DNA of 64,000 bases, taken from the NCBI GenBank assembly GCA_965178125.1, contig OZ237735.1:2604001-2668000 (forward strand), written 5' to 3'. This document shows, in pieces, positions 14,701 to 60,395 of the stretch. The position numbers were made by a program, and so were the translations under genes. Under the pieces are notes generated by a model. It was not told where the DNA came from. It worked only from the letters and a program-made list of their open reading frames with translations, and did no database searches. This stretch comes from Bilabrum cf. latius. Lineage: Eukaryota. The number at the start of each line of letters is the position of its first letter. The first letter of the stretch is position 1.

Positions 14701-17700
14701 AATCTGGTGAGTCCGCCTTGCTGGAGCCGAGAGTACCCGGCGAAACGCCGATGGCGAGTGGCACAGCCTCACCGCCCGAACCTGCCACTGCCAACTTGAA
14801 TCGGATGACACCCTTGGCAGCCCCTTGCGTGGACATCAAGGCGCATCCACCGTTCAAGTCAGCCTGGTTATCGCCGGTCACTGAAGCGTACCCAAAGCCA
14901 CTCGCAATGACAGACCCGGGATTCCACTTCGCATCAGCAGTGACAAACTTTGTCGTGTCCACCGCTGTTTCTGGATCAGAAGTCTCGTCCTCTCCCGTGG
15001 CATGGTCGCCGTCTGCATCTGGCGCGTCCGAACCGGCCCCGACCAGTTCCACCTTCTCCAGTCTGGCCTCCCCGGGGCCCTAGAATCCAATCCCGGGCGC
15101 GTAACCCCCCGACGGCTTCGCAGCTGGCAAACGGCCGGCCGGAATCAGCGGTACAAACGTCCCCGACTCGTTGTTAACGCAGATGTGCATGCTGGGAGAC
15201 TTTGTACCGTCCCCGAGGTTCATGCGCAACCTGATCAGCTGCCCCACCTTCCGGACCCATTCATGCTGCTGCTGCGCGGCCAGCACCACTCCCTCCAGTA
15301 GCGCCTCCCCGAGATGCGTGATCAGACCACTGAAGCGGCCATCACGGTGCGCCACGCTGGGGAAATCACCCCCCTTCCGACGGAAGCCAACCACAATGGG
15401 AAGCAAAGAGCGCCGGTTTCCCGCCATGGTCCTAAACTGTGCCTCCACTGTGCCGCTGGTGAAGTACCGGCGGGTGCAAACGTGCCCTCCAGACCGGGCC
15501 AAGTCCATCAAGATGGCTTTCTTGCCTTGCTTGTCGACGTGGAGCAGACCTAACGTGCGAACTTCGTGCATGTGAAGCCTGTTCTGGGCTTCATCATCTT
15601 CCATGGCGGCTTGCACTCTAGCAATCTCCGCCTGGGTGGCCTCGGCCCCGCTCGTGCTGCCGCCTTCGGTAGATGTCTCGGCACGCACCATCGTGACTCT
15701 CACGCCTGGACCATAGCTCAAGACAGCGGGGCAAGCTGTCAGCGCGGCTTGCTCGTCCCCCTTGCGCCGCAATGAATCACCTTTGGCCAGCACAAAGCTG
15801 CCCAGCGAAGTGCTCACTCGCAAGATTGGTTCCTTCTTGTCGCTAGAGTCGCTGCCGGCGGATGGAGGCGGGGGTACTTTCTCTCTGTGCTCCGGTGCGG
15901 GCTTGCCTTCCGGAGTTGGAGCTGCAGCAGACGCTGGTGCATCTGCAGCAGCATTGCCATCATCCAACAGTGACGCAGCGATGGCCGCTTCGAGCTCTGT
16001 CGCATCGCTGTCTGCGCTGGGTGCCCGCGACACATCGCCACCGGCTGACGCGCCCCCAGCGGGCTGGCTGATTTCAGGCTGCGGGCCAGACGCCTTGGTG
16101 TCTGCGCCAGGAGGCCCGCACCAATCGAGAAGGAACTCAATGTCCTCGCCCACCGGCAGGCGCAGCCTGGAGTCCACCGAACCGGAGGTTGAAGGGCCTT
16201 GCCTGCGGAAAACGCGGCCGTTGATTGCGTTGCACAGCACGCTAGATCCACCGATCTGGGTCGGATCCATCGTGTTTCTATCCGCTGCTTCTGCTGTTGC
16301 AACCCCAGCCATCACGCATGGAAGCACATCTCCGGCTGCAGCTCCAGTCTCCGCGTCAATTCGCAGAGTCCACCGGACCCTGCCCGTAGCGCCCTCGCCG
16401 AACCTCGCCCGGATGATACCCCGGCTCACCTCGGTCCGGATGGCACGAGAAGGTGCACCAGCTGCACCAGCTGCACCAGCTGCACCAGCTGCACCAGCTG
16501 CACCCGCGGGACCCGACCAGCCCAACTAGGAGTGTGCAACGGGTGTCCAGCCGCTGGGGCTGGTGAGATGCTGCAGCACCTCGCGCACGCGCCGCTCCTC
16601 ATCTGATTTGCTGAGCGCCGCGGCTACCCGTGCCGACTCAAACTTGGCCCTTTCCTTGTCTTCTTTCTCCTTCTTCTGCTTTGCGAGAAATTCATCGTCG
16701 TACCCGGCGATGGGAAGCGGCTTCTCGGATCCATGCAGGGTGATATGCTTGTCGCTGGCTGCCTCCAGGGCATGCTGGAACTGCTGCTTGACAGCCTGTG
16801 CCCAGCTCTGCATCTGTGTCTACGAGCTGGAGTTCCTCAGCCGAAGCTCTGCATTCGGTGCGCGCATAAACGACTGCGGTACCCCTCTCTTGTACGGCTC
16901 ACCGCTCTGCTAGATTCGTGCAGCGATGGAGGCTCCGTGAAGCGGGGCACCAAACGACTCCGACCACGAGGCCAAGTCAAAGCCGGCGGTCGGGTCGTCT
17001 TTCTTCACGCCCTTTCCTTCTGCGTCCTCCTCGGTCAGCACTAATGCGCGTGCGATAAGAAGGGCCAGCTAGGTGCTGCTGTCTCCCCATTCTGGAACAA
17101 GCACCATCTGCTGACTGCCAACCGCCATGTTGTACAGCGCGATTGCTCGCTTCGCGGGGCGATTCTTCCAGTATTGCTCCAGCTCCTTCTCGCACTCTTC
17201 TCCAGTGAGCTTGTCTCTCCCAATAAAATCCGCAGGGTCGTAGACGGCAGTGCGAGGGAAGCCACTAAACTTGAGGCCGGCGATCCCGCCTTTCATGAAT
17301 CCCTCGGAGCGTTTCTCCTGATCAACCCACACGCTGGACAAGGGCCATCTGGGGGCATCGAACGACTTCTTGATTGTGAACGCGTTGCCCTTAAGCAGCT
17401 GCTCGAGCCTGCCTCTCCGCTCCGCCAGCTTGGAACGCATGCGCGACCCCTGCTCCTCGAGCAGGTCACACAGCGATATTTCGTCTCGCAGTCCGATGCG
17501 GCAGCTTGCGCTCACGTGCCCCTGCTTGGATACGTACTTCTTGTACTCCTAATCAGCCTTAAACGGCAGCTTAGCGGGATTGTATCGAAGCGCGAGAGCC
17601 AGGTGCAGCATGCACGCGTGGAAATCAGGCGAAGCGTCCCTCGGATGGGTGGGTCCGTCAAACGCCAGGCGCAGGCCGGTTTCGATCGCCTCGGAACGCA

Positions 17701-20700
17701 CGCCGTGCTCGCCCCCGGAGAGCCCAAGCGTGTAAGACTCTTCCTTTCCGAACGCCCTGTCAGTCTGCAGCGAAGCCATGAGCTTCTTTGCGTCCTCGTA
17801 CTGACGGTGCACGATGTTGCTCACCAGCAGGTAGAGAGTCGCAGACACAGAAGGAAGCTGCAAAAAGGCCCCCGACACGTTCACAGGGAACACGTAGGCC
17901 CGGTTGCGCACCTTGTTCTCCCATCCTGGTCGGCCCCTGAAGTACTGCACGTAGGTCGTGAACGGGTGCCCCGTGATCGAGGGTCGCAGCATGGGGTGCG
18001 AGGGAACGAACACGAACAGCTCGCTCTGGTCATTCTGCAGAACTAAGCTCTGGGGCAGGCCTCGCAGCAGCTTCTGCGGAGACAGTGCGTCGAGCGCGGC
18101 GCTGGGCTCCTCGCCCGACTCGGCCCCATCCAGCAAGAACATAGAGGTGCGGTCGGACAGCCGCAACACAAGGGAGCCGTCGGCACTGCGGCTGGGCAGC
18201 AGACCAGTTCGAAGCCTGGGCAGCTCAACGCAAGCCAGAGGAACCGACTCACCTCGAGAGACCAGGCCAGCAAGAGACATGGGGCCCAAGATCGGGGCAC
18301 AAGAGCTTGTGCCGCTGGGACCATGCCCCGTACCACGGCCCTGCGCATCCGCGGCAATCGGTGCTGTGCCCTCTGCAATGCGGCGCTGCAGCATTTTGAT
18401 CGGAAGGGTAGCCCATGGGAGCACGAAGCCAGCGTCCTCCACGCGAGCGACGGTCCTCAGCACCTTTGCGAGATCAGCGTCGCTGCCCACCGACTGCGGG
18501 GCGACAAGGATCCTCGGCAGCTTGCAGTTGGGGTCTCGCAGCACAGCTTCCGCTGCACTAGCCCCCACCCGCTGCAGCTACCTGCCCAGCGACCTGATAT
18601 GCGCACGGTGCGACTCGCCGTACAGCGCGTTCGCAATGACTTGGACCGCACCGTGCCACGGGGTCCCAGCGTATACGGGTACCTCAAGCACGTGCGCCTC
18701 CACAGCCGCGACCGGTCCGTTCCCATCCACGGCCTCGCTGTCGGGTCTTCGAGACAGGTGGATCTCATACACGGCCCCAGGAAGAACCTCTTCTGCGCCA
18801 GCCATCAGGTCGGAGGCAGCCTCCGTTGCTGAGCTGACGTAGGCGGAGCTCTTCGGCTCGCCAACGAGCACAACCCGCGGCGGCGATGATGCTGAAGTGG
18901 CAGACGCCACCGCAGCAGCCATAGTGTCTTCGATCCCATTGCTGGAGTCTATCCTCCACCACTGCACATCCCCACGCAGTAGCGCGCCAGGCACGGCGCC
19001 TTGCAAGAGCGCCGAAGGTACCCAGCTGGCTCGCACGGCAGCCCCGCATCCCGGCTCCTGCCTGCATCTCACGATCTCCATCCCAGGGACCTCCTCGGGC
19101 CCTGCCATGATGTCACCAAGTCTGAAGTGAAGCATGCAGGACGGGTGTCTCGCCAGAGCGTTGTCCCATGGTGCCAGCCCGGTGGGAGCTGCGGCACTGC
19201 CAAAGGTCCTCCCCAGCGACCTCCTCCCGTCCGTGGTGAAAGACAGCACGCGATACACCCTGCGGGCGTACTCTTGAAAGCGATACACCTCGATCATGCC
19301 CAACTCGCCACCCTCGGGGTCTGGCTTCTTTGCCACAATCTCCCGCACATCCCCGGTCCTGGCATCCCGCCACAGAAGCGTGCAGCTGTCGGGTTGGCCT
19401 GCCCTGGCAGCGGCGGACGGGGCTGAGTCATCGCTATGCTTAGCAAAAACCTGCATGTTCTAGAGGGCCTGCTCCGCTAGCTACCTACGCTTCTTGAGGT
19501 CATCCGCCCTCGTGTCCTTCTGACCCTCGCCGGGCCCCGGCGTGGCTGCCTCGATCAGCTCCTGCAGAAGCGTGTCCTCCAACAGCGACTGCAACCAGGC
19601 CTCTTCTCCCGTCAAGCGCGTTCCTTTCGCGCTCTCGGTAGACCCTTGCTTCTCGACCCGCTGCAGGATTTTGGCCATCTCCTCCTCGTCCGCCTGCTCT
19701 CTGTCCGCTGCAACCTCTTTGATGGCACGGCCGGACAGCACCGCCATCATGTCGATGCTAAAGTGCACCTGCCGGTCATAGCTGTCACCGAGGTACTCAA
19801 GGACGCGCTTGCCCTGGACTTCTATGCCACTGGTGGCCGTGGAAGCGCCAGACGCTTCATTCTAGGCACCACCAGCGGCAGCCCCTCCTTCGTCAGACTT
19901 CTTCTGATCGCCCCCGCCACCCTCGCCCAGCGACATGCGCAACGCCTCTGCCAGCTCTGGGTCACCTCCATCTACCGCTGCCTAAATCTGGGACCGGATC
20001 TAGGCGTTGGGGTCTTCCGCCGCACCGGCATTAGAGGCCTGCGCACCGGCGTCGTTGGGCGCCGACGGCTTCCCCATTGACGCTTCCATTGCCTTTCGCA
20101 GCTGCTGCTCTTCCAATGTCTCACCAGGATACGCCTTCAACCCGCTCTGCTCAGAAGCTTCCCGCTCAGCCTTTGCCTCCTTCTCTTTGGCAGCCTGCCG
20201 CTCGACTGCGGACGCTGGTCCCAGCCACCTCGGGTATCCGTGCGGGGCCAGCTGCCCGTACTGCGTGAGTGGGAGCGGCTCCCAGTGGCGAACGACCACC
20301 TGCCCATGGGCGGTGACCTGCGGCTCGCTCGAGACGATCTCCAGCTCCGTGACGTTCTCGTGCCGCTGCGTGATAGCGCAGTGGGGCACGGAGCCTCCGA
20401 AGAAGGCGCGGAACGCCGACGTCTGTGCCGTGCGGAATGGCACAGTTTGGATCTAGTCGCCCGACTGCAGGCGCAACGTGGCCGTCTGCAGCTCAAAGTA
20501 GTACTTCTTGTCAGCGTCGACCACGATGCCGCTCGAAAAACCGGCATCGTCTCGGTTGAGTCGGCCCCCAACGGCCCCGATCTCATTGCAGACCCTAACC
20601 GAAGCACCGCCAGAACGCTTGGCTCTCTGCAGCTGCTATGCGAGATCAAAGGCAGAGCTTCCTCGCCCTAAAATCGCCGGTGTTCCGTGGCCGTGCGCGA

Positions 20701-23700
20701 CTGCGTCGCGGGCTGCCTCTACATCGCCACCGGCAGCGCGCAGGGTAGCCCTCAAGCCCCACGCGGCCTCTGGATCGGCACCCAGCGCTTTCTGCAGCGC
20801 GTCCAACCTAGCGTCCTCGCTTGCCGCCCCGTCCCCAGGGACCAGCCCGAACTGCACCTTGTCGTTTTCCAGAATCACGCGGAGCGCGATCGTGAGCGCC
20901 TCCTGGCGGTCCGTGCACGAGGCCACTGCGAGCCAGCTCATAATCCGCGGCATCACGCGGTGCAGCGCCTCGAAGACGTCGCCTTCCGCGGCGAAGATGC
21001 CGCGCCTGAGATACTTCGGCTCGGCGTCGCGCACGTCTAGCTCGCCCACATCTGCTGTCCGCATTGTGCCGTTCACCAGCTTGAGACGAGCGGGAATCCG
21101 CAACGAGCGGAGAACCTGCTGCCCGGGCACGTGCCAGTTGCCGAATGCAACGGCCGCGCCCACGCACCTTCCCACCTGCACGCTGTCCATGGCCTGCAGC
21201 GGGCAGCCGCTCGCTGCGATGACCTGGTGCGCAAACACAGCGCTCCTCAGCCTGTTGTCCCTTCTCGACACCGCGTCCTGCATAAAGAACGCAAACACGG
21301 GCGAGCAGTCGTCGTCCAGGACACCGCGGAGCCCCGCTGCCAGCTCCTCCACAGCGCCGCGCAGACCCACCGTGGGCCCACACGGGTGGTCACAGGGCAG
21401 GCCAAGCACTGCGTGCGCGAACGACTCGATCCTCGATACCAGCCGCACGCAGAAGAAGAAGACCGTCACATGAGCGGGATCCGCGTTGTTCTTACACAGG
21501 TAAATCACCTGCTGTAGCAGCCTGCGAGCAGGAACGAGAACCGCAGCCGGAGCGCACGCAATCTCGTGCATGAGGGGGCCCCATGGAGTGGCCAGGCTGC
21601 CTCCGTCACGCTCTCGCGCGGGAAACTGGTCGGGAACCGCGCTGCCCTACGAAACAGCGAGCGAATCCAGAGGGTTCACTTCCTACTTCTCAGCGGCAGC
21701 GTCTTCTTTCTGCGAAGTGGCATCACCTGCGCCCCCAGACGAGCTGCCCGCCCCCGATGCAGCAGCAGCAGCAGCCTCACCGCTGGGCTTGGCCATCGTG
21801 GCTGCGCCGGCATTAGGTGAGGCGATGCCGGAGCTATCGCCCGATCCCGCGGGCTGGGGCATGGTGAGGCCCTCGAAGACAGCGTGCCACAGCAAGTGCC
21901 TGATTTCTTGGTTGAAGAGAGCGCCGGAGCCCTCCTGCGACATGAACTGCAGCAGCAGCGGGATGCGCACGTGCGGTTCGCAGAGGAACGTGAGCATCCG
22001 CTCGGCGTGGTCCTCCGTGAGAGCGCCATCGAAATCGTCCACCGCCCGTGCGAGCACCACGTCGTCCTCGTCCGGTGGGGATGACGGTTTCCGGCTCCGA
22101 ATCCCGTGGGCCAGGGGATTGGTGCATCTGACCCTCGGCTGCCTGTAGAAGTGGATTGGCTCCTTGGACTGGAAGATACCCACGATGGCCCTCACGCTCT
22201 GCTCGTTCTTGTCATAATTGGTCAGTCGCACCTGGAACACCTGCCTCTCGTGCATGACACCGCCTGCGCTCGGCTCTGCCACGAAGCTCTGGTACGTTGG
22301 TTCGCAGGCGACGCGGGCAGCGAGGGCTGCCGTGACCATTGGCGTGTACTCGGGACAGCGCCTGTAGTCGCCCGTGAAGTCGGTTCTACCCTCCATCACG
22401 AGCTCCTCCGTCGAGGCGCTGGCGTTGAAGTCGTTCAGCGCGTTGAGCAGGTAGACCTGCCTGGAAAAAGAGGCAGGCAAGTCCTCGGTACTGACCTTTC
22501 CCCTGCCAAACATATCTTCCTCGTCCAACCCTGCCATGCTCTGGTAGTGGAACAGGTGCATCCTCCGAATGCCGCCCTTGTCCGGCAGCCCGCACATCCG
22601 AGCCAGCACAGCCACCTGCTCTAGTGCCGGAGTCGTTTTCGCCAGGGCCAGAGTCGGGTTGTCTCGGCGCCTAGAGACACCGCCGCCGAGCAGGCCGGCG
22701 ATCCCTCCAGCGTCCCCTTCGTCGTCTGAGTCATCCGAGTCGTCACTGCTGCCGTCGCTGTCCTCGCCATCGGCATCCTCATTGCCACCCCCCTCAGCCT
22801 GGGCATCGCCCCCAGTACCAGTACCCGTGCCAGCCCCGAGCCGGTCATCTCGGTGCATCGAATCCAGGAACTCCACGTCGAAGAAGGGGGTCTGGGCCAG
22901 GGCGCGCTGCCTGCGGTCGTGCTCCACGAGCCGGGCCCGGCACACGGCCACCTCGGGCGTGCAGACGTCCCACTCTCCGCAGATAGACTCGAGGGGTTTC
23001 CTCGGAGTACCCAGGTCCAGTCGCAGTCGCTGCCCGTGGTACTTTTGCAGGTCGCTAAACGTGGACGCCGCTTCAGCCGCACGTCCCTCCAAAAGGTCGG
23101 CCATCGCACTCTCGCCTGGCTTGAAGAGGGCGCGCGTGGCCGCGTCGATGAACGCGCATGCCGCAAGCACCGTCACCGACTTCTGCGCGGCGGCGTGTGA
23201 ATCGAAGCGTCGCACCAGCGCGGTGGCATTCAGATAGGCTCCCAGCAGCTGCTGCAGCTGGCGGAGCATGCTTCGCACATCGTCAGCGGGGAGCTTGGAG
23301 CCCCTGGCCCACTCGGTGCGATCGAAGGGCAACGCCTGGGTGAACAGCCGGACCAGGGCCTGCTGCAGGTGGTAGGCCCATGCTATCGTGGTACCGGAGC
23401 CTTCCAAGAGATTGGCGATCGCAGCCGCGGATTTGACCGCGTCGCGTACCTCTTCGGCCGTGCGGCAGAGGGTGCCGGGGATGGACAGAAAGTCCGGAAC
23501 CGTCGAATCGGTGGGCTTTGAGGCCTTCCCCTTGAAAGGATCCTGGTCCACCTGAGCCGCCAAGAGCTCCATCCCCTTGAGTGGGGCGTACTGCACCGAG
23601 GCATCCGACTTTCCGTGCCAGCCCAGCGGTTTCACCCCCGGGTCTGTCCAGCCCGGGTCCTGAGACGCGGGCACGATCGAGTGTTGGATCTCGGCTAGCT

Positions 23701-24987
23701 CGGCCTGGATCTCCTCCGCCTCTTTTTCGCTGATGCTCCCCGCCTTAAGGTTCTTAATTGCGTGGTGGGCCGTCTGCTTGCAGCCAATGCCGATGAGGTC
23801 TCGGTCGCTGGGATGCAGGCCCAGCCCGGGAGCCTTGTGCGCGTGCACACCGGAGCCATCCTTCCTGGCCTTGAGGTCCTCTTTGACCATGAGCATGTAG
23901 CACGCGCGGATATAGAGCGTGAATCGCTTGCACTCCTCTTTGCTCATCCCGCGCAGACGCGCGTAGAAGCGCAGGGCAGCCAGCGATGACCTGTAGTAGC
24001 ACGTGCCTGCCCTCTGCGGGGTGATCCAGTCTCCAGACTTGGCAGAGTCGCTCGTCTCGTGCGACCGCGCGGCAAACCGTGAGGGGTCGCCGTCACAGAT
24101 GTAGGGCAGATACAGCTAGTAGTAAAGGTGCGGCCCGTTGCGGTCGTGCGCCTTGGATCCGTTCCGCATCAGGCACCAGATCGCGGCTGGGTCGATGACC
24201 CTGTTCCTTGGGATGCCGTCGAGCCGCATGGCGCACTTGGCCTTGTTCCCTGCCAGGCCCACCTTGGGCCACTCAATCTCGGCCGAGGCGTGGTGTCCAA
24301 GCCCCTGACCCGTGTTCACCACCACCACGGCAAAGTGCTCCTCGGATTCTCGCAGGAACACGGTCATGATGGCGTGCCCGCCGCTGGACCCCATCCAGCA
24401 AGTAGAGTGCATGTAGCACCCGCCCACGGCGAGCCCCTTCAAGCGATTGTGCACGCGGCGAACCCGCTCATGCAGCTTCATGCTGTCTTCATTGTACGTG
24501 CTCGCGGACTCGTGCAGCCGAGCAGCGACGTCCGTCACGATAGGCACGCTCACGCGCCAGCCCCGCTTAGGCGCCTCCGCCGCGACCCGCTCCACGACCC
24601 CGTGCAGATATCGCAATGAGAGCAGCGGCAGGCCACCTTCTAGTTCAGTCTCATCGCTGCGATGAGCGCGGTGGGAAATAGAATGGCGATCCAAAATGCG
24701 CGCACCAAGCAACTCCAGAACGCGGGGTGTTTGTCGCATCAGAGCGACCACCAACAGGTTGTGCTCACATGTAAGGGTCCCCAAACTCTCCTCTGCGATT
24801 TGATCAAATGGTTGATTGGAAAAGACAACGGTAGCAAAGGAAGATCGACGCAAATAAGAGCACCTATTCCGCAAGATCGGTCGCCCTTGTGCAACTTGAA
24901 TATTTTCTTACGCATACGCTCCTGTTCGCCACAGCGCAAAGTCATCAACACTACCTGATATGCGCCTTTCTGCTTCAGACTTGCCAT
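5747..24987 (-). CDS. Giant (~6,350 aa) DUF3638/DUF3645-family protein: putative N-terminal cysteine protease, UBA/UIM motifs, SPRY-like modules, P-loop/helicase-like core, C-terminal EF-hands
   Basis: Sixteen listed minus-strand ORFs (low ends 5801 to 24116) are all in one frame. I translated every gap and found only TAG (25 in total), ending at TGA 5747-5749. Motifs: [68 protein letters not shown]-hands [13 protein letters not shown] and [13 protein letters not shown]. The start (ATG 24987 with an intron ending at 24793) is tentative. Confidence 0.85.
6516..6644. repeat. 21-bp coding minisatellite, about 6 copies (DLPPVGG on minus strand)
   Basis: Tandem unit ccccccccacagggggcaggt is directly visible. 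Confidence 0.95.
16454..16504. repeat. 9-bp coding tandem repeat (gcaccagct)n encoding AGA repeats
   Basis: About 5.5 perfect copies visible. Confidence 0.9.
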
Positions 24988-40726: not shown

Positions 40727-43700
40727 TCACTGCCGACCAGGCGTCTCACCTCCGTCGCTGCCGCTGCCATCAGGGCCCAGTGCAGCATCTCCCCTGCGTA
40801 GTCGTGGCACCAGCCGCCCCGCGCCCCCCCGGATGCTCGCAGCACCCGGGTCACACTCGTCCTCCTTTGCATCCCCCCACAAGCCGCCCGCACGCCCGCT
40901 AGCCTCGGCTCCCTCACCCCCGTTCTCCCACTCCACCTCCAGGCCCTGCACCTCGGCCTCTAGAGTGGGAATCTCGGCGAACCCGGCGTACTGCCCGCCA
41001 AGCGATAGCATGACCCGCCTCCACGTCGAGCTGCCGCCAGCTGAAGGCCCGGCCACCTCGTCCCCAGCGGCCCCCTTCCCCTTCCCCTTCCCCTTTGCCT
41101 CCTGATCCGGCCTCGATCCGAAGTATGGCGCGCTGTGTCCTCGCCCTGCAGCTTCCAGGACCAGCGCCCAGGGGTTCTCGTGCTCGACCACTACCCAGCT
41201 GCCCTCCCGCAGCTCGCGCTCCAGCTATCCGGGGGCCCATCCGCTGAGGCTCTCAAACCCCACCACGTCCTCCAGCTCAGCAGCACCCGAAGGGGCCGTT
41301 CGGGCCTGACCGGCAGCAGCGCGCACGGCTGCTCGCTGAAGCTGGGATGGTTTGGCATTGGAGAGCACCTGCAGCACGGACACATCCACCTCTTCCTCTG
41401 CGTCATCCGCATCCTGCTGCTTTGCCGATGCACGAGCATCTTGCTTGGCCCCGTGCTGCCTTCCCTTCCCCTGCGCCACGGCACCTTGCCTAAGTACCAC
41501 AGGCAAAGAGAGCACTGCATCGCCCCCGAGACGAGAGTCGGTGTGCAAAGAGAAGGGAGATGTTCGCAGCGGGCCGCCGCACAGTAGCGGGATCTCTCCG
41601 GCCGCGTGGGCTGCCAGCGCGCGGGTTGGGCCATCCCTCCCAGACTCGCCGGTCGCCTGCAAGCCTTCTCCGGTCGAGGTGCCGACAACACGATCCAATC
41701 GGCTCCGCCGTGCGTGCAGTACGTCCGCCAAGGAACCGCCCTTACTTTTCTGGCTGCGGTGCAAGTCTCGCTTGCTTCTGTATCGCTCCCTTATGCGAGG
41801 GTAGCAGTCCTCTGCAAACACGTCGGATGGTGACGCGCCGTCGAGCACGATCGGGGCGTGTCCAGACGCACCGTCCACGGGAGATCCCGATGAAGACGAT
41901 GATGTCGTTGGCAGTGCGCCTGCCAGCCCAAGCACGCTCTCGTACGACACCGAACCATCGAACTCGTCCGCATCATCAGTTTGAGAGGCATCGCCGACTG
42001 CTTCATCGGCTACCGAATCCTCCCCAGTCCCGGCACCGTCTCCCTGCTATGCGTCGCTGGTATCTGCTGTGTCCGCTGCTGCATCGGATACGCCGAGTCC
42101 AATTGACCTATCCAGCAGCCAGTCCTCGTCGTCCTCCTGGCCGACGCCCTCCCCTGACAGATCCACGGGCCCGAGCCCAGAGTCCCGCGCATGTGCAGCC
42201 CGGCCCCGCCGCCACCTTGCTGGGGGCACCGGGGATCTGAGTTGTGAGCCGCCGGTTGTTGCACCAGTGCCAACATCGTCACTTCCACGCCATTCTCCGT
42301 CGCTCTCTGCATCCGATCCTGCCGGAACGCGAGCACCTGAGCGACCTCCTCCCAGCTATGGGATGTCCGGCGCATCCTCAGATCCCGATTTCTCCATCAG
42401 CAAGCGGGCGAGAACCGCGCTGTCCCTGCCCATGTCCCCGGTGAGCTCGAACCCGAGCTTGCTCGCAGCGGTTGCCAGCTTGTGGGAGGCGCGCACGATG
42501 GCCTGCACCTCGTTCCGCATCGAGGGGGGCAGCATGGAGCTTAAGACCGCCAAGTCCTCGTCAAGCGGCGGCTGGCTATCGCTGCCTGATTTCTTCGAAC
42601 CGCCCTCGTCGTCCTCGCCGTCCAGCAGATCTGCCGCCCACTCCGACATGACGGCCACGTCCTTGGCAAAATCAGGTGCGGTGGCCAGCATGTTGGCCAC
42701 CTCAGACAAGAGGTGGTCGCCACCTGGCACACGGGCGGCTCCCATTCCCTCTCCGCCCCCCATGGGCACAAGGGCATCTTCCTCCCGTCTGGCGATGTGC
42801 TAGTTCACGGTCATGTCGCGACCCGGCTCGACCACACCCACGGTGCCGGGCTGCATGTTCAAGCTAGAGCCTCGCAAGGTCGCGGACCTGCTCCACACCT
42901 CTCGAAGACCCTCGATGTGCGCTTTAATGTCGGGATCCAATCCCAGCTTCGCGTGGGCAGACATGGCCCCAAGTGCATCCACCACGATGAACGGCATCGA
43001 AGCGCTCCCGGTCCCAAAGCACTCGTGCATGGGCCTGGGACTGGCCAGGTCGATGCCCCCCAGCTCTGATCTGCGTCGCGAAGTGCGCGCCGCCGTAGAC
43101 GCTTGCCCAGAGCTTGAAGAAGCGGAAGCATCCTTCCCCTAGCCCCCCCCTTCCCCGGCAAGTTCGGTGGCATCTCTACGAGGCGCCCACTGCCGCTCCA
43201 TCGCTCTCTTTGCTAGCTTCTTCCTGGCGACCCTCTCTTTCTTTCGCCTGACGAGCTCTTCCACATCGATGGCCCCGCGGGCATCCACGGGCAGTCGCAC
43301 CGGCCGTCCCTCGGCGATGGCCTACCTCGCCTTGCTCGGCAGCGCGTCTGCAATGGCCTCCACGCTCTGCATGAGCACATACCTGGCCGCCTCTCCCTTG
43401 GCCTCCTCGTAGTCCTCGTGGCTCGAGTAGGCGTCCGGGTCTAGCGAGTCCTCCTCGCTATCAGAATCGCTGCCGCTAGAGTCTGACTCGGATGTAAGGT
43501 CAGAGTCAGAATCAGAGTCAGTATCGCTGCCTTCGTCGTCGGTGCAGTCCGTGTCAGACTCATCGTCGTCGATGCCGAGCGCCGAAGCAGCGCCACCAAG
43601 CCGTCCATCTGCGGCACCACGCAGGAATGCATCCTTCGGGTCGAAGTCGCTGCTGTTGGGCGGCAATAGGGCCGCTTCAAAGGAGCCTGCAGCGACCGAA

Positions 43701-45586
43701 CCACCCGTTGTAGACTATGAACTAGACTATGAGCCTTCCCCGGAGGGCGTCTTGACCCGCTTCCACTGACCTTCGAGCATCCACGGCTCGATGTCGTCGA
43801 TGCTGCCATCGCTGCTTGCCTCTGGCACCATGTCTGGATCCGGGGTCCAGTCTGCCGATACGTCCACCTCGACTGTGCGGTAGGCAGCTCGAATGAACTG
43901 CGCCAGGAGGCTGTCGCTGGGGACGTGCACCGTCCTGTGCCTTGGGTCCTCAGTTGCACGCGACTGCGGCTGCTAGCCCGCTTGCTCCACCGCAGAAGGC
44001 TTCGCCGATCCGTCGCTACTGCTTGAAGACTCGCCGAACGCGTAAGGCTCGGTCCGTCTAGGCGCGCTTGCTCCGGAACTCTAGCCCCACATCGGAGTGC
44101 CCGCCTCGCCGACCTGCATGGGCGGCACCGGCATGCCGGAGAGTTCCTGCAGCAGCGCGCCTGTGCCTGACCCTGTGCCTGTACCAGTGCCTGTGACGAG
44201 ATCCGATTCAGCATCGGAAGAAGACAATTGAGACGATGAAGCTCTAGCGGGTCCGTCAGGAGGCAGTGCTGGTAGGGAAACGCTCCTGGCGGGGTCGGTC
44301 TCTCGCAGTACCGCCATCGGTTGCAATCGGAAACCGGTGCTGGCGCTGCTGCTTGGAGCACGGCGCGCTTGTGAGCTGAGCACGGTCGAGGAGCTCTGCA
44401 GATCTACCTCGCTGCTTCTGCGAGAGTAGTCGCTTGCTTCAGCGCTATTGCCATCGCTTCGTCGCGTTCGTCCCATCCGTGGGGCAGCCCTGTCCCCGCT
44501 GTTCCCTGCGGCGCCTCCACCGATCCTAACCTCTCTGGCCTCTCTAGCCGCGGCCATGCGAGTACCGTGCTGCTACTGGCCGCTGGATGTGCCAGCCACC
44601 AGCTGCGGTCCCATGGTTGCGCTGCCTTGTGCCTGCCAAGACTGGCAGTGGGCAGACAGCCGGCTCCAGACCGGGTCTGCGAATACGCCCATGCGAGGAG
44701 AGCGACGGATAGACGGCAGCTCTGGAGGTGCACGCACTTGCTACCCACCCCCCTAAGTGTCTTGTTCGTTTGAATGCACGGACTCGCGCGCCCCGCCCCT
44801 GGCCGATTCGCCCGCTGCCTCAGGAGCAGCACCGTGATGACGTTGCGGAGGTGACGACGGCGACGGTCCCGCTGTGCCAGCCGTCGAATGACCACCCGCC
44901 TCGCTGCCTGAAGAGGGGATTAATCTTCCGTAGGGAGGAAGGGATGCATCGATATGCCAGGAGTTTACAACGACGCCGAATGCCCCCGTCTTTGGGCTGT
45001 AGTCCACGACGAAAATGAGGCTTTTATGGAAATTAGATGAAGGCATCATGGGGTGAGCCACCAAAAATGTGCCAGGTCTAGGCTGTCCAGAGATTCTGCA
45101 CTCCCCACTTGGAGGGCGATTGGAATCAGGATGGCTTGCACCCGCCCTTCTTGGGCTCTCGAGTGGGCCAAGCACGCCAAGCCTCCGAGCTCTCTGCAAC
45201 GCCGAATTTAAAGCCTTGATGACATCGAAAGACGCATCCAAAGACAACTTCAAGCCTTGACTATTGATGGAAGGCTCCAACGATTCCTGCCGAAAACACT
45301 TTTTTGCAAGCTCGGCAAATCCACGGGCCGTCGGAAGGTAAAATTCGCGACCACCTGGAAGCACGGCTTGATCAAGCCCCCAGCGAGAGATGCACTCGGT
45401 ATCTTGACGGAGAATGACAGCCTGCAGGGGTTAATGTCAGAAACGGATGCATTGGAAGATGCAAAAACAGCCAGCCAGACGTGTGCTCCACCATCGTCGC
45501 TCTCTTACTTTCAGCTGAGGGTTCCTGTCAAACTGCCTGCACAGCCGAAGCACCGACCTAAATATTGCTTTAAAACCCCTATCCAT
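40727..45586 (-). CDS. DUF179 (AlgH/YqgE-like) domain protein with very large acidic/low-complexity insertion
   Basis: Nine same-frame ORFs joined by 13 TAGs. PGTFLVAHPMM..NFHKSLIFVVDY..GAFGVVVN near 45000; LCGGP and SGWAPG(TAG)LERELREGSW near 41200-41600. Probable first exon 45586-45509 and intron 45508-45422; TGA at 40727. Confidence 0.75.
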
Positions 45587-45738: not shown

Positions 45739-47418
45739 TCAATTACACTTACGCATGTGCGTCCTGAGTGAGCCTGCCTCCCCAAATGCCTTGCCGCACA
45801 CGCTGCACTCGTGATTCCGCTGGCCCAGATGCACAGTGGACTCGTGCCTCCTGAGTGAGCCTGCCCGCCCAAATGCCTTCCCGCACACGCTGCACTCGTG
45901 CTTCCGCTCGCCCAGATGCACAGTGGACATGTGCCTCCTGAGTGAGCCTGCCCGCCCAAATGCCTTCCCGCACACGCTGCACTCGTGCTTCCGCTCGCCC
46001 AGATGCACAGTGGACTCGTGCCTCCTGAGTGAGCCTGCCTCCCCAAATGCCTTCCCGCACACGCTGCACTCGTGCTTCCGCTGGCCCAGATGCACAGTGG
46101 ACTCGTGCGTCCTGAGTGAGCCTGCCCGCCCAAATGCCTTCCCGCACACGCTGCACTTGTGCTTCCGCTCGCCCAGATGCACAGTGGACTCGTGCGTCCT
46201 GAGTGAGCCTGCCCGCCCAAATGCCTTGCCGCACACGCTGCACTCGTGATTCCGCTGGCCCAGATGCACAGTGGACTCGTGCCTCCTGAGTGAGCCTGCC
46301 TCCCCAAATGCCTTGCCGCACACGCTGCACTCGTGCTTCCGCTCGCCCAGATGCACAGTGGACATGTGCCTCCTGAGATCACCTGCCTCCCCAAATGCCT
46401 TCCCGCACACGCTGCACTCGTGCTTCCGCTCGCCCAGATGCACAGTGGACATGTGCCTCCTGAGATCACCTGCCTCCCCAAATGCCTTCCCGCACACGCT
46501 GCACTCGTGCTTCCGCTCGCCCAGATGCACAGTGGACATGTGCTTCCTGAGTGAGCCTGCCTCCCCAAATGCCTTCCCGCACACGCTGCACTCGTGATTC
46601 CGCTCGCCCAGATGCACAGTGGACATGTGCGTCCTGAGTGAGCCTGCCCGCCCAAATGCCGTCCCGCACACGCTGCACTCGTGCTTCCGCTCGCCCAGAT
46701 GCACAGTGGACATGTGCCTCCTGAGATCACCTGCCTCCCCAAATGCCTTCCCGCACACGCTGCACTCGTGCTTCCGCTCGCCCAGATGCACAGTGGACAT
46801 GTGCGTCCTGAGTGAGCCTGCCCGCCCAAATGCCTTCCCGCACACGCTGCACTCGTGCTTCCGCTCGCCCAGATGCACAGTGGACATGTGCCTCCTGAGT
46901 GAGCCTGCCCGCCCAAATGCCTTCCCGCACACGCTGCACGCAAATCCGTCAGCTGAGACACCTCCAGCTGCTTCCCCTCGCCGCCTCTTCGCCCCCCCTC
47001 CGAGTCGCGTCCTGATGCCATTCTCTTCGTCTCTACTCCGCAATGCCGGCCTGCCCCGCTTTTGCCCCAACGAGGCACTGCTAGCACTGTCTGTAGCTGT
47101 AAATGAGCTTGAATGTGCCATCAACCGCGGCATCGTGCAACTGCCGTCAGTGGATGGACCTGATGATGCCATGACGGACACGGGAGCACCGGCGGCAGGT
47201 CGCGACTAGCTTGGACCGACGGACCTAAACTTGGCCCTATCGCGAGATGGATGCAACGCCTTTCCTTTCGGCTGTGCGCCTCTACTGCCCCATCGACCGC
47301 TGCTAGCCGATGATGATCCGGCAATCGTGTCGAGAAAATCAACATCACTGCCGCCTGCGTCGCTGTCACTGCTGACGAGATCGATCACCTTCCCTGAGCT
47401 TGCATCAGCTTGGGCCAT
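45739..47418 (-). CDS. C2H2 zinc-finger array protein (14 fingers, last C2HC-like)
   Basis: Repeated CSVCGKAFGxAGxLRxHxSTVHLGxRxH. N-terminal extension via TAG 47206 to ATG 47418 (tentative); TGA at 45739. Confidence 0.9.
45752..46938. repeat. 87-bp coding tandem repeat, about 13.6 near-identical units (zinc-finger minisatellite)
   Basis: Direct inspection; one unit is one 29-aa finger. Confidence 0.95.
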
Positions 47419-47749
47419 AACTTCCACTTCTACCAGATACGTGCCAGGGCAATTCGCAACTGATTCCACTACAGGGTCAGACTCGTTCGTGACAGGTGCA
47501 ACCAGCGATCTGACTACCAGTAGCACTTTTTAACGGCCAGCGCTGACTTGATCGACCTTGTATAAATCGTTTCCTTCCTTTGCACTGTGATTCAAGAATC
47601 CAATGTCAATGAAGAGACTAGAAATGGTGCAAACCACCCTGGACGTCGCGATTCTGAGTTGCGTGCACTTTAATGCCCCTGATGCTCACCTCCGAGTTCG
47701 ACAAACCGCGGGCTCCACTCGATCTAATGGCCGACATGACACCCCACAC

Positions 47750-53094: not shown

Positions 53095-54317
53095 TCATTT
53101 GCTAGATGCACCGCTGCCGGCACCACCAGTAGCAGCCCCTCCTTCCCCCGACGACGCGCCCTCCCCGCCGAGAAGCAGCGACAGGAGCGCCATCCTCGTG
53201 TACAGCCCGTACCTCATCTGCCTGAAGTAGGCCGCCCGCGGGTCCGAATCCACCTCTTCCAGGATCTCGCCCACCCTTGGCAGCGGGTGCATCAGCACGC
53301 AATCCTCCTTGGCCTTGCTCATGGTCGCGGCATCCACGACGTAGGACCCCTGCGCCGCGAGGTACTCTGCCTCGCTGCCGAATCGCTCCCGCTGCACACG
53401 AGTGACGTACACCACGTCAGCGGAACCGATGCACTCCGCAAGGGATGGGGCCACGGAGCACTTGCTCCCCTTGGCCCTCGCTGCCTCGAGCACCTCCTCG
53501 GGCATTCCGAGTCCCTCGGGCGACACGCACACGATGCTCGCTCCAAACGGGGCGAGCAGCTTTGCAAGCGAGTGCACGGTGCGGCCGTGCTTCAAATCGC
53601 CGACCATGGCGATCGTGAGGCCCTTCAGGCAACTAGCCACTGCATCCTTGCCCCCGCCGGCCTTCCTCTCCGCGCATACGGTCACTAGGTCCAAGAGCGC
53701 CTGCGTGGGATGCTCGCCCGAGCCGTCCCCGGCGTTCAGCACCGGAACATCGACGGCGCTCGCTGCTTCCACGGCACTTCCCTTGGCAGGATGCCGGAGC
53801 ACGATTGCATCGCAATAGCATTCCATGGTTTTCATCGTGTCTCCCAGGGTTTCTCCCTTCTTAACCGAGGAAGACGAAGCACTCACCGGAACGACTGCTC
53901 CGCCAAGACGCAGCATGGCAGCATGGAAAGAGCACGAAGTTCGTGTGCTTGCTTCATAGAATACATTGGCAAGTATCTGCGTGGATGAGGTAAAATAGCG
54001 CCACAGGTACAACTTAGGTGAAGCTGCGATCGAATCGGCGCTCGAGCCTGCTAACTGCAACTCCTACCTTGGACTTCAGAATCTCGCACCTGCCACGAGT
54101 CTCTACGATATCTTTCATTTTCATCGCAGTCATCCATACAAGCCTGTGCGTGATGCGGGCTGAGAGGTGCATCCAGCGGCCGTTACCTTCTCTCGTGAAC
54201 CAGCGAGTTGCATCAGCAGCACTTCACTCACTCAAGAGCAGGGCCTGAAAACTAATCGACGGAGACAATGCTCTGTCCGCACCAATCACCTACATTTGAA
54301 CCTATATCCTGAGCCAT
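53095..54317 (-). CDS. pyrB: Aspartate carbamoyltransferase (stand-alone ATCase)
   Basis: FYEASTRT, KKGETLGDT, LNAGDGSGEHPTQALLD, VGDLKHGRTVHSL, YVTRVQRERF, MHPLPR, AAYFRQM. Intron 54067-53977; TGA at 53095. The exact start is uncertain. Confidence 0.93.
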
Positions 54318-54790: not shown

Positions 54791-57700
54791 ATGTCCTCAT
54801 CCAGTAAATCTTCAGGCGGTGCAGGCGCTGGCAGGCTGCCGGGCTCCGGGCGAAAACGCAAGGCTGGCGAAATGCAACCTGCCATCCCAGATCCCGCGAG
54901 GCTACTCGAGGATCCCAAGGACAGCAGGGGCAAATTGGTGATGAAAAATGGTAAGAGAGATATGCTAGGCTACGTCGGCTTGCGTGTGTACCAGCAAACC
55001 CGCGAAATACATTATGCAAGCGAAGTCGACACCAGCTGATGCAATTGTGTGTCACGGCCTGCCCGCCCGTTTGCGTTCCTCGCAGGCAAGACGATCGAAG
55101 GATTCAGCTTTGGTGCTCGCAAACCCATGGCTGGCGAGGTTGTGTTCAACACCGGCATGGTCGGTTACCCCGAGGCGCTGACGGACCCGTCGTACCGCGG
55201 GCAGATCCTCGTGCTCACCTACCCGCTCGTGGGCAACTACGGCGTGCCCGACCGCGAGGTCAAGGACGAGTACGGCCTTCCTAAGTTCTTCGAGAGCAAG
55301 GAGGTGCATATCTCTGGCCTCATCGTCTCCAGCTACACGGGTGAGAGGGGCACCGGTCCTGTGCAGTGCAATGCAGTTCAATGCATCCTGGTGCCGCCTG
55401 GCACATGCCCCCGTTGGCAGCATGCATGCAAGCATCCTTTCCCCCCCCCTTTCACTTCCCCACAACCCGCCCGCAGAGGATTTCTCCCACTGGAACGCCA
55501 CCTCCTCGCTGGGCCGCTGGCTGCAGGAATCGGGCATCCCAGCCCTGCACGGCGTAGACACGAGGGAGCTCACCAAGGGGCTCCGGGAGGAGGGATCCAC
55601 CCTCGGCAAGATCGTCTTCCCCAAGCTGGACGTGCCCTTCTCTGACCCTAACCGGCGCAACCTCGTGGCCGAGGTATCCTGCAAGGAGCCCATGGTCTTC
55701 AACAAGGGGGCCTCGCCCAAGATCGTCGCCTTCGACTGCGGCATCAAGTACAACATCATCCGGTACATCGCCAGGAAGGGCGTCGAGCTCACCGGTGAGT
55801 CCATGCTTGGCAACCCCGGGGATGGACGCTGCTTTCTTGCACCGCGATGAAAGCGAGCTCACTGCATGTTGCTGACCCCGCCCATGCCATGTTCACTTCT
55901 CCTAGTGCTCACTCTCTGTCTCTTCTCCCCCTTTTGTTGTCGTGCCCTTCACATCGCAGTGGTGCCCTACGACCACGACCTCAGCAAAGACCCCGTCAAG
56001 TACGACGGCGTGTTCGTGTCCAACGGGCCGGGTGACCCCGCCATGGCCTCCTCTGTGATCGTGCAGCTGAGGCGCATCCTGCGGAGATACGGCCTCACCG
56101 TGCCGGAGGACTCGCAGCTCCCGCGGTTCTCGGAGCGCCCCGAGGAAGGCGACGCGGCAGCGGCGAAGGGGACCGCGGGCAAGAGCGGGCAGGCCTTGAT
56201 GGAGGACGGAGAGGCGGCCACGGGCGGCGCCGCATCTGCGGCCAAGTCTTCCTCGTCATCGTCTTCGGCGGCGTCTTCTTCTTCCTCGTCTTCTGCCGCT
56301 GCTGCCGCGCCGGTCGTGGACTCGTCTGCTCCGCCGATCTTCGGCATCTGCCTGGGTAACCAGCTGCTGGCCCTGGCTGCAGGCGCCAAGACGTACAAGA
56401 TGAAGTACGGCAACCGCGGCATGAACCAGCCCTGCGTCGACATGCGCACCACGCGCTGCTACATCACCCCGCAGAACCACGGGTTCGCAGTGGACAGCGA
56501 GTCGCTGCCCGACGGGTGGCGCACGTTCTTTTTGAACGCGAACGACCACACCAACGAGGGCATCATCCACACGACGGCCCCAGTCAGCTCGGTGCAGTTC
56601 CACCCCGAGTCCAGCGGAGGTCCCCTCGACACGGACTTTCTGTTCGACATGTTCCTGGAGCAGGTCAAGGGAAGCCCTCCGGCCATTTCAACCGTGGAGC
56701 CCTCGCACTACCTAACTGGGCGCGGGAAGGTGCGCAAGGTGCTCATCCTGGGCTCCGGCGGGCTGTCCATCGGGCAGGCGGGCGAGTTCGACTACAGCGG
56801 CTCCCAGGCCATCAAGGCCCTCAAGGAGGAGAACATCCAGACCGTGCTGGTCAACCCGAACATCGCCACGGTGCAGACCTCCAAGGGGTTGGCTGACCGG
56901 GTGTACTTCCTGCCCGTGACCTCGGGCTTCGTCCTGGACATCATCAAGAAGGAGAGGCCCGACGCGATCCTCATCTCGATGGGCGGACAGACCGCACTCA
57001 ACGTGGGCGTGGAGCTCCACGACTCCGGGGCGCTGGCCAAGTACGGCGTGCGGGTGCTGGGCACGTCGATCGACACGATCAAGGCCACGGAGGACAGGGA
57101 GATCTTCGCGGCCAAGCTGGCGGAGATCGACGAGTCCATCGCCAAGTCGTTCCCCGCCACCTCGGTCGATGAGGCCGTGGAGGCGGCAGCCAAGATCGGA
57201 TACCCTGTGCTGGTGCGGGCGGCGTTCGCGCTGGGCGGGCTGGGGTCCGGTTTCGCCGACAACGAGGAGCAGCTCCGCGAGCTGGCTACCAAGGCCTTCG
57301 CCTCATCCTCGCAGATCCTGATCGACATGGACCTGAGGGGCTGGAAGGAGGTGGAGTACGAGGTGGTGCGCGACCGGATGGACAACTGCATCACGGTGTG
57401 CAACATGGAGAATTTCGACCCTCTGGGCGTGCACACGGGCGATAGCATCGTGGTGGCGCCGTCGCAGACACTGTCTAACTCGGAGTACTTCATGCTCCGC
57501 AAGACTGCCCTCAAGGTGGTCAGGCACCTTGGCGTGGTGGGCGAATGCAACATCCAGTACGCGCTCAACCCCAAGAGCGAGCAGTACTGCATCATCGAGG
57601 TGAACGCGCGGCTCTCGCGATCGTCTGCACTGGCCTCCAAGGCCACGGGGTACCCGCTGGCCTACGTGGCAGCCAAGCTGGCCCTGGGCGTGGACCTCGT

Positions 57701-60395
57701 GTCACTCCGAAACTCGATCACCAAGAGCACCACTGCATGCTTTGAGCCCAGCCTCGACTACTGCGTGGTGAAGGTGCCCCGGTGGGACCTCAAGAAGTTC
57801 AACCGAGTGTCAACCAACATCGGGAGCAGCATGAAGAGCGTGGGCGAAGTCATGAGCATCGCAAGGTCCTTCGAGGAGGCGCTGCAGAAGGCTGTCCGCA
57901 TGGTGAACCCCGCACTCGCGGGCTTCGAGGCCAGGCGCAAGACTTCTTCCCCTTCCGATGGCGGCAGCGCCTCGGCCGCTGTGAAATTTGCGGAAGGCAC
58001 CAAGTCCCCCGGCGAGCCCGGCGCCCTGCCCATGAGCCCGGCCCGGAACGGGGCCTCTTCGGTGCTGCCCCTGGCCAGCGCTGCCATGGACGGAGAGGGC
58101 CCCGACGGGCTCAAGCTCCCCACGGCTGCTAGCTCGGCTGCTAGCTCGGCTGCTGCTGCGTCGGGCAAGTCTATGCCTGCGAGGCGCAGGCAGCGGAGTG
58201 CCAGTACCGCCGAGGCCACGGCCATGGCAGGCGGGGACGCCTCCACCGACCTGCCCGCTGCGCACGCGCGCCCCGCTGCTAGCGGTGCCGGTGCGGACGC
58301 CCACCCCGTGTCGGGCAAGGGCCCTCGCGGGGACGGCTCTCGCAGCGCCAAGAAGAGGCGCAAGGCCGGTGGATCGGGCAAGCCCGGCGAGCTGGACGCG
58401 GCCGAGTACAGCGACGACGAGCTGAGCCACCGGCTGCAGAAGCCGCACCACACGCGCCTGCTTGAGATCGCCGAGGCCCTCGAGCGCGGGTGGACCGTGG
58501 ACCGCATCCACGACCTCACCCGGATCGACCCATTCTTCCTGCGCAAGCTGGCCACCATCGCAGACATGGGCAAGACCATCGAGGCCCACGGCAACGTGTC
58601 CACCCTGCCGGAGCACTCCATGAAAGAGCTCAAGCGGGTCGGCTTCTCGGACCTTCAGATCGCTCGCCGCATGGGCTGCGACGAGTTCGCGGTGCGCCGC
58701 CGCCGCAAGGAGATGGGCATCGTGCCTGCCGTCAAGCAGATCGACACGCTGGCCGCCGAATTCCCGGCGCAGACCAACTACTTGTACATGACCTATGGCG
58801 GAGACCACGACGACGTGGAGCCCACCAACGCGGGAGCGGTGGTGCTGGGCAGCGGTGCCTACTGCATCGGCTCGAGCGTCGAGTTCGACTGGTGCGCCGT
58901 GTCGTGCATCCGCACCCTGAGGCAGGCTGGCAACCCCGCCATCGTGGTGAACTACAACCCCGAGACCGTCAGCACGGACTACGACGAGAGCGACCGGCTG
59001 TACTTTGAGGAGCTGTCCCTGGAGAGGGTGATGGACATCTACGAGCGGGAGCAGCCCGGTGGGGTGATCGTGAGCGTGGGCGGGCAGATCCCCAACAACC
59101 TGGCGCTGCCGCTGCACAAGCAGGGCGTCAACGTGCTGGGCACCAACCCAATGATGATCGACCGCGCCGAGGACCGCTTCAAGTTCAGCCAGCTGCTGGA
59201 CGACCTCGGAGTGGACCAGCCCAGGTGGAAGGAGACCACCCGCGTGGAGGAGGTGCTCTCCTTCGTGGAGGAGGTGGGCTACCCCGTCATCGTGCGACCC
59301 TCCTACGTGCTCTCTGGCGCTGCCATGCGCGTGGCCGAGGACGAGCCGGCGCTGCGGGCTTGCCTGGAGGACGCCGTGGACGTGTCGCCCGAGTACCCAG
59401 TGGTGGTGAGCAAGTTCGTGCTCAACGCCAAGGAGGTGGAGTTCGACGCGGTGGCGAGCCGGGGGCACATCCTCAACTACGCTATCTCGGAGCACGTCGA
59501 GAACGCGGGCGTGCACTCTGGCGACGCGACCCTGGTGCTGCCGGCCCAGAAGCTGTACGTGGAGACGATCCGGCAGGTGAAGCGCATCTCCCAGTCGATC
59601 GCCAAGGCGCTGAATATCACCGGCCCGTTCAACATTCAGTTCATCAGCAAGGACAACGAGGTAAAGGTGATCGAGTGCAACCTGCGTGCGTCGAGGACGT
59701 TCCCCTTCATCAGCAAGACCTTCGACTTCAACTTCATCTCGCTGGCCACCAAGGCCATGGCGGGGCTGCCGCTGAAGCCTGGCGTCTTCTCCCTGGTGGA
59801 TCTGGACTACGTGGGGGTCAAGGCTCCCATGTTCTCCTTCACTCGGCTGCAGGGAGCGGACCCCACTCTGGGCGTGGAGATGATGTCTACCGGTGAGGTG
59901 GCGTGCTTCGGGCAGGACCTGCACGAGGCCTTCCTGAAGGCGCTGCTGTCGACAGGCTTCAAGCTGCCCAAGGCGAACAGCTCGGTGCTGTTGTCCTTCG
60001 GTGACGCCGAGAAGAAGCACCTGATTGAGGCCGCTGGAGTTCTCGAGAAGCTCGGCTTCTCCCTGTTTGCCACTGAGGGGACGCACAAGAGGATGGCGGA
60101 GGCCGGAGTGAAGAGTGAGATCCTGTACAAACCATCGTCGGGCAAGGAGCCCTCTGTGGTCACCGCCCTGGAGCAAGGCAAGATCTCGCTGGTCATCAAC
60201 GACCCGAACGCGGGTGACCGACAGGGCACCACCGACGGGTACGTCATCCGCCGTACCGCCGTGGACTTTGGTGTGAGCCTAATCACCAACTTTAAGTGCG
60301 CCGTGCTCTTCGCGAACGCATTGGCCAAGATCCGGTCGTTCCCCATCAAGCACGTGGACGAGTATTACACCCTGGGCCACCTTGCCGAAACATGA
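54791..60395 (+). CDS. Glutamine-dependent carbamoyl-phosphate synthetase (fused GATase and synthetase, CPS II type), ~1,720 aa
   Basis: [36 protein letters not shown] (catalytic Cys), [30 protein letters not shown], and a C-terminal MGS-like domain. Introns 54951-55085, 55341-55476 and 55795-55959; TGA 60393-60395; no TAG. Confidence 0.97.

Follow-up and report, generated by a model that had tools for sequence, protein, structure and literature searches.

A large family of fast-diverging zinc-finger genes with SIM-like N-termini in a stramenopile: a possible counterpart of KRAB-ZFP repertoires

The analysed window, a 64,000-nucleotide stretch of the Bilabrum cf. latius genome (assembly GCA_965178125.1, contig OZ237735.1, positions 2,604,001 to 2,668,000 of the forward strand), carries a gene for a zinc-finger array (Table 1). 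Its neighbours include a giant intronless ORF with DUF3638 and DUF3645, a DUF179 gene, and two adjacent, divergently transcribed genes for a carbamoyltransferase and a carbamoyl-phosphate synthase. Close to its 5′ end the DUF179 gene contains an intron as long as one finger unit, a match that looks coincidental. The named, non-fused best matches of the carbamoyl-phosphate synthase come from oomycetes, diatoms, Cafeteria and Blastocystis (∼ 75–80% identity), so the host is a stramenopile.

The giant ORF, ∼ 6386 codons long, is open only when TAG is not taken as a stop, so TAG is a sense codon. This holds for the nuclear code genome-wide, with TAA and TGA as stops; the frame of the carbamoyl-phosphate synthase has zero TAG in 1514 codons. 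TAG most likely encodes Gln. Within the fingers, TAG and CAG replace each other at the same positions; in alignments of paralogues, TAG is paired with CAG more often than with any other codon (10 of 43); and in the SET2 paralogue, aligned by eye, it stands opposite Gln. PDB alignments were not decisive on the residue, and a literature search found no report of TAG as a sense codon in stramenopiles.

Table 1. Features of the window and of related loci elsewhere in the genome. Positions without a locus label are those of the window.
Feature	Position	Strand	Remarks
Giant intronless ORF with DUF3638 and DUF3645	5747–24907	−	
DUF179 gene (40727–45430): GT-AG intron close to its 5′ end	45422–45508	−	87 nt; skipped in runs X5 and X7
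Zinc-finger CDS, intronless	45739–47418	−	559 aa + TGA, TAG read as sense; in-frame TAA upstream at ∼ 47530
Coding minisatellite, 14 × 29-aa zinc fingers	45742–46944	−	variable at −1 (R/E), +3 (S/D), +6 (R/T/K)
Tandem repeat (TRF)	45754–46939		period 87, 13.6 copies, 94% matches
Bipartite NLS-like basic motifs (LGQKRGR ... KRRR)	46978–47070	−	first motif in 52/53 N-termini
Ser/Gly/Ala-rich spacer, poorly conserved	47071–47340	−	in-frame TAG at 47206–47208
SIM-like KVIDLV, then Ser/Asp run	47341–47391	−	putative SUMO-binding effector; motif in 53/53 N-termini
Probable 5′ untranslated region	47419–47610	−	X5 contig ends at 47610, DNA run X1 continues; weak hint
Carbamoyltransferase gene	53095–54063	−	
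Carbamoyl-phosphate synthase gene	55851–60395	+	
Ngaro-type tyrosine-recombinase retrotransposon, full-length, intact-looking	L083:2110–10000 and L116:1–1950 (G000 C33)		
Coding minisatellites, 42-aa TPR-like and ARM-like repeats	L089:1324–2390; L095:1500–2500		beside Ngaro repeats
Protein with several C2H2-like fingers of irregular form, unrelated to the family	L082:6371–8999 (C17)	−	near Ngaro repeats
AT-rich endogenous virophage/Polinton-like elements (30–46% GC)	L140–L143 (G000 C7, C5)		rve integrase, C5 methylase

The read contig of run X5 is identical to the zinc-finger gene, without gaps, over positions 46893–47610, and no upstream exon was seen in it up to 47610. This run, labelled by the tool as 'RNA? 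(probably DNA)', skips the intron of the neighbouring gene. Together, the skipped intron and the ungapped contig are moderate evidence that the gene is transcribed and has no upstream SET or KRAB exon. The absence of SET and KRAB, already noted from the sequence, agrees with the Pfam search, which matched no family in the N-terminus (KRAB, SSXRD and PR/SET all absent). The basic motifs upstream of the array, which we take to be nuclear localization signals from their consensus, predict a nuclear protein. A collapsed or mis-assembled repeat was considered and rejected: in DNA run X1 three exact pieces of the array had depths of 18.7, 20.4 and 17.8× per copy and the flanks 17.8–20.1×, so the array is not collapsed. 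The other runs are essentially identical to the gene and fragmented within the array, with no independent allele resolved.

The minus-strand frame encodes 13 CX2C-X12-H-X4-H fingers followed by one terminal C2HC finger, and Pfam recognizes 14 stretches of PF00096 (C2H2), with spacing within CX2C-X12-H-X3–5-H. The array described in the sequence-only reading is thus real; all six of the recognition helices that it named are present, as are the M/E, E/Q and K/N alternations. The unit is 29 aa (87 bp), compared with 28 aa in PRDM9. The claim that variation is concentrated at the DNA-contact positions was upheld by the per-site diversity of fingers 2–13, in which 48% of the amino-acid heterozygosity falls at −1, +3 and +6 (exact p = 0.0023, with 1771 triples of non-structural positions compared), with the caveat that the non-contact position +8 (M/E) varies roughly as much as −1. 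For the same fingers, pN is 0.395 at the contacts and 0.037 in the scaffold, where pS is 0.039, and silent changes are indeed few (2 of 14 variable nucleotide columns). The proposed combinatorial shuffling stands in part: all four gametes are found for 12 of the 21 site pairs, yet D at +3 is always linked to E at −1 and R at +6, forming a four-base block that is also present in two other genes.

In an alignment-based AlphaFold model of the window fingers (pLDDT 77), three helices start at +1. As the helix begins at the Ala that follows R/E, the R/E residue occupies −1 and the numbering is right. The top fold matches of this model are DNA-bound zinc-finger proteins, and the fold is canonical. 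An all-beta model from single-sequence AlphaFold (pLDDT 86, the other four models at 28–66 and in disagreement) was treated as a repeat artefact, the alignment-based run having given fingers; an AlphaFold artefact on repeats is named in the title of PMC11795689. DGR-type adenine-directed mutagenesis was also rejected, the silent A at the +1 Ala being kept in 454 of 485 fingers.

The gene belongs to a large family, which the first reading had missed. A search with a 261-bp query gave at least 198 matches (40 of 78 candidates scored), and a linker pattern matched 431 times genome-wide; the 351 matches retrieved, on which the family statistics are based, fall into 57 array ORFs on 17 contigs, with 5–15 fingers each. 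An N-terminus was found in 53 of these ORFs, which gives at least 53 intronless paralogues, and the other four are array fragments behind insertions or at the edge of the retrieved sequence. Family members are clustered as tandem duplicates, together with repeats, and several copies are broken by insertions. The N-termini fall into 22 similarity groups, that of the window gene being at best 71% identical in nucleotides to that of another member.

All 53 members share one architecture, a SIM-like motif plus an array, with a bipartite NLS in nearly all and nothing else in common. In SIMs of the PIAS/Daxx type, the hydrophobic core is followed by an acidic extension. Each of the 53 N-termini contains, 6–12 residues from the Met, the motif [VI][IV]DL followed by an acidic/Ser run, in which D, E and S make up 6–11 of the 12 residues after the core; a GQKR-type basic motif is matched in 52. 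The family N-termini thus show the SIM consensus, a hydrophobic V/I-x-D-L core with an acidic flank, and are predicted to bind SUMO. An exact match to the SIM DNA pattern is present in only 25 genes; the family was therefore also recovered by routes other than the motif.

Contact residues are diversified throughout the family. In all 51 arrays with at least five internal fingers (six were dropped), contact pN exceeds scaffold pS, although pN/pS is merely descriptive under gene conversion (PMC5519329). The contact share of diversity has a median of 0.49 (range 0.27–1.0) and the window gene is an average member, ranking 28th of 51. The scaffold is homogenised, with a median unit DNA identity within arrays of 91%: scaffolds are three times closer within arrays than between them (distances of 0.060 vs 0.177), whereas contact distances are nearly alike (0.324 vs 0.407). 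The 513 fingers carry 109 contact triplets, and the contact strings are distinct in all 57 arrays. Rewriting after duplication is fast. Among pairs whose N-termini are at least 95% identical (pairs that are mutually non-independent), the contact string differs in 38 of 38 and the finger number in 33 of 38; in one pair with 98.4% N-terminal identity, 14 of 14 fingers differ. Contact codes are thus almost fully rewritten by 2–3% N-terminal divergence. The residues used are N, D, H or S at +3 (Ser serves as the +3 residue for T, which completes the four-base module vocabulary), Q, R, E, V or L at −1 and R, K or T at +6. They match those of engineered DNA-binding modules such as QSGDLRR for GCA, DPGNLVR for GAC and RSDHLTT for TGG (PMC7317221).

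The statistics and the paralogue comparison both support the earlier suggestion that this is a DNA-binding array in a protist that recombination may reprogram. Its description as PRDM9-like applies to the homogenised array with diverse contacts, but not to the 29-aa unit, the SIM-like effector or the status as one of at least 53 paralogues. A family of this size with such an effector has more in common with KRAB-ZFP repertoires than with PRDM9, a single locus.

Three arrays are interrupted, without target-site duplication, by a 615-bp repeat that bounds an element with a reverse transcriptase and a tyrosine recombinase, i.e. of the Ngaro type. Ngaro elements and solo AB repeats with the same features have been described in Cafeteria (PMC8547959). 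Of the 58 exact matches to the Ngaro repeat, 19 are at most 2 kb from an array (0.3–0.4 expected), a count to be read with the facts that the query was the copy inside an array, that some matches are co-duplicated and that five genes were found via such matches; with 10 independent events, the clustering has p ∼ 7e-12. Among Ngaro loci away from the zinc fingers, 8 of 32 adjoin other tandem repeats, compared with a baseline of 1.7% of positions. The solo repeats of Ngaro occur preferentially at minisatellites, where no target-site duplication accompanies them. The TPR-like and ARM-like coding minisatellites beside such repeats are possibly further diversifying receptor families. No Ngaro-type element was found near the window gene. 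A transposon-carried gene was rejected, as common termini are absent and the Ngaro repeats lie at varying distance and orientation. The virophage/Polinton-like elements, which use TAG as sense, also encode a P-loop protein and a small SET protein; SET matches like the latter occur on three further contigs (C3, C9 and C25).

Targets were predicted with an approximate zinc-finger recognition code. Of the 53 arrays, z exceeded 2 for 3 on Ngaro, for 7 on the viral element and for 6 on host DNA, with no signal over host. Mapping of predicted motifs to repeats and viruses, suggested in the sequence-only reading, thus gave no target over host DNA, and the conflict with mobile elements or viruses is still something that we infer. 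The window array has its best absolute predicted-site scores in GC-rich host DNA; its z = 4.5 on the viral element was rejected as an effect of the AT-rich background, because the absolute score is below that of host sites.

Genome-wide searches gave no candidates for Piwi (the positive control was found in 2 of 14 genomes) or for PAZ (a search without positive control), and one single-domain RNase III protein with no Dicer-like gene detected. As far as these profiles tell, the genome appears to lack RNAi. Genes for SUMO and for an EZH2 homologue, E(z), are present, as are two Spo11/TopoVIA homologues. All 18 SET matches lie away from the known array loci, and the 12 of 18 SET loci that were read by eye included no SUV39/SETDB1-like gene.

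Protein searches found no close homologue, only generic arrays of at most 50% identity, mostly animal where named. Searches of viral contigs gave one 27% match and otherwise none, and a metagenome pattern search gave 0. One of the two nearest look-alikes, P0215, is encoded on a 4.7-kb contig and fuses a nine-finger array to a T5orf172 nuclease, which makes it a candidate natural zinc-finger nuclease. It shares with the family the helix scaffold FG-x-AG-x-LR-x-H...TVH[LM]G (49% identity) and the same variable positions, through homology or convergence, but has 31-aa CX4C fingers, a C-terminal nuclease and no SIM; no family member contains a nuclease domain. Atlas neighbours of this architecture are Nucleocytoviricota clusters at 0.80–0.88, a lead only. 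The other, P0401, is a non-nuclease protein with a very similar 29-aa finger.

Our preferred reading, to which we give a probability of about 0.5, is a convergent KRAB-ZFP-like repertoire that would recruit SUMO-linked silencing to mobile DNA and be diversified by PRDM9-style recombination. The window gene would then be one of a lineage-specific set of nuclear, sequence-specific repressors whose fingers read DNA in 3-bp steps, with contact residues spanning a four-base code. New specificities would arise as the units of each 87-bp minisatellite undergo unequal exchange and gene conversion, and helix blocks may sometimes be exchanged between paralogues. The VIDLV-acidic motif would bind SUMO on chromatin co-repressors, perhaps PRC2-linked, and the selecting targets would be mobile DNAs: Ngaro, the endogenous virophage/Polinton-like elements and incoming viruses. 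A bolder form is tentative and, in our view, less likely than not: that a unicellular stramenopile, having lost RNAi, independently evolved an adaptive, protein-based genome defence in which > 50 SIM-tagged, recombining zinc-finger genes, drawing on a full four-base recognition vocabulary, direct SUMO/PRC2 silencing at retrotransposons and endogenous viruses, a union of KRAB-ZFP logic and PRDM9-style diversification. In favour of the preferred reading are the family size, the SIM-like motif in every N-terminus, the contact excess in all 51 arrays, the rapid rewriting of the codes, the lack of Piwi and PAZ candidates, the presence of SUMO and the EZH2 homologue, the Ngaro and AT-rich integrase-bearing elements, and the clustering of Ngaro repeats at the arrays, as in KZFP clusters. 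Against it stand the target scan, the Ngaro association, which extends to other minisatellites and is missing at the window gene, the lack of a SUV39/SETDB1-like gene among the loci read, and the fact that VIDL-acidic motifs are found in many nuclear proteins.

The broken copies and the window array's best predicted sites in GC-rich host DNA would also suit an ordinary expanded family of transcription factors for host genes, with fast minisatellite turnover, contacts relaxed by redundancy and no genetic conflict; the available part of a study of C2H2 expansion in red algae likewise discusses it without reference to TE defence or such a mechanism (PMC8304369). We regard this as rather unlikely, because relaxed constraint predicts pN ∼ pS, as opposed to the contact excess in 51 of 51 arrays, and because codes rewritten by 2–3% N-terminal divergence change too fast for stable host regulons. 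That the ligand of the arrays is RNA or protein, and not DNA, is very improbable: the HX4H fingers and the linker, which lacks the Thr and Pro of TGEKP, would allow it, but the variation sits at base-contact positions, with residues as in engineered DNA modules, and the top fold matches are DNA-bound.

The family could also be selfish or self-directed (at satellites, minisatellites or rival haplotypes, in drive/suppressor or incompatibility systems), or sense viral DNA, rather than repress chromatin. The clustered tandem duplication with repeats, the existence of other coding minisatellite genes and the coupling of the same helix scaffold to a nuclease in P0215 speak for it, but we find it unlikely: shared terminal repeats and a fixed cargo arrangement are lacking, the flanks of the window gene match those of no other member among the matches listed, members have no nuclease domain and no close viral or metagenomic relative, and the very similar finger of P0401 belongs to a non-nuclease. 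Quite unlikely, finally, is a SET-less analogue of PRDM9 whose arrays choose recombination sites while the SIM anchors them on meiotic axes rich in SUMO, with hotspot erosion driving the turnover. The minisatellite dynamics, the two Spo11/TopoVIA homologues and the contact share of 0.48 in the window gene, which like the family median lies within the 0.33–1.0 of complete PRDM9s in part of Table 1 of PMC5519329, would fit. However, Baker et al. saw arrays evolve rapidly only where the complete PRDM9 domain set of KRAB, SSXRD and SET is present (PMC5519329), domains missing here and, for SET, from the known array loci; moreover, > 50 paralogues would dilute hotspot erosion, and this reading presupposes meiosis in the organism.

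According to Wells et al., heavily duplicated ZNF families are rare in non-animal lineages, which rely on Argonaute for this task, and the targeting of TEs by ZNFs probably arose as a metazoan innovation (10.1101/2022.11.29.518450); limited finger repertoires are reported for fungi and plants (PMC7293014). A large, diversified ZNF family in a protist in which no Argonaute was detected puts this claim directly to the test, and looks like an independent invention of a targeted gene-silencing toolkit so far ascribed to animals. We found no description of such a protist family in titles and abstracts, a search that covered few subscription papers. PRDM9-type array turnover without KRAB, SSXRD and SET also means that this signature alone does not imply hotspot control, and the near-constant scaffold with its natural contact triplets is a natural library for the zinc-finger recognition code.

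Compared with known systems, the predicted effector resembles a PIAS/Daxx-type SIM (VIDLT in PIAS1; PMC4907222) in its V-I-D-L core and the acidic/Ser run after it, and differs in being fused to a programmable array, in having no SP-RING and in its fifth residue, which is mostly Val. With PRDM9 the window gene shares a coding minisatellite of near-identical fingers, diversity at −1, +3 and +6 and changes in finger number. Orthology to PRDM9 was rejected on the missing domains, and the unit length, the many paralogues and the stramenopile host differ as well. Like KRAB-ZFPs, zebrafish FZNF and insect ZAD proteins, the family combines a short N-terminal effector with a long array, clustered duplication and an excess of change at the contacts; the large, clustered family with rapidly diverging contacts is a KRAB-ZFP feature found here, and KZFP clusters are themselves enriched in retroelement repeats (PMC13709654). 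Unlike KRAB-ZFPs, its members lack KRAB, have a linear SIM-like effector in place of a folded domain, consist of a single exon with fingers homogenised within the gene, and belong to a unicellular host. The gene is thus a member of neither PRDM9 nor the KRAB-ZFPs: it evolves like the former and is organised like the latter.
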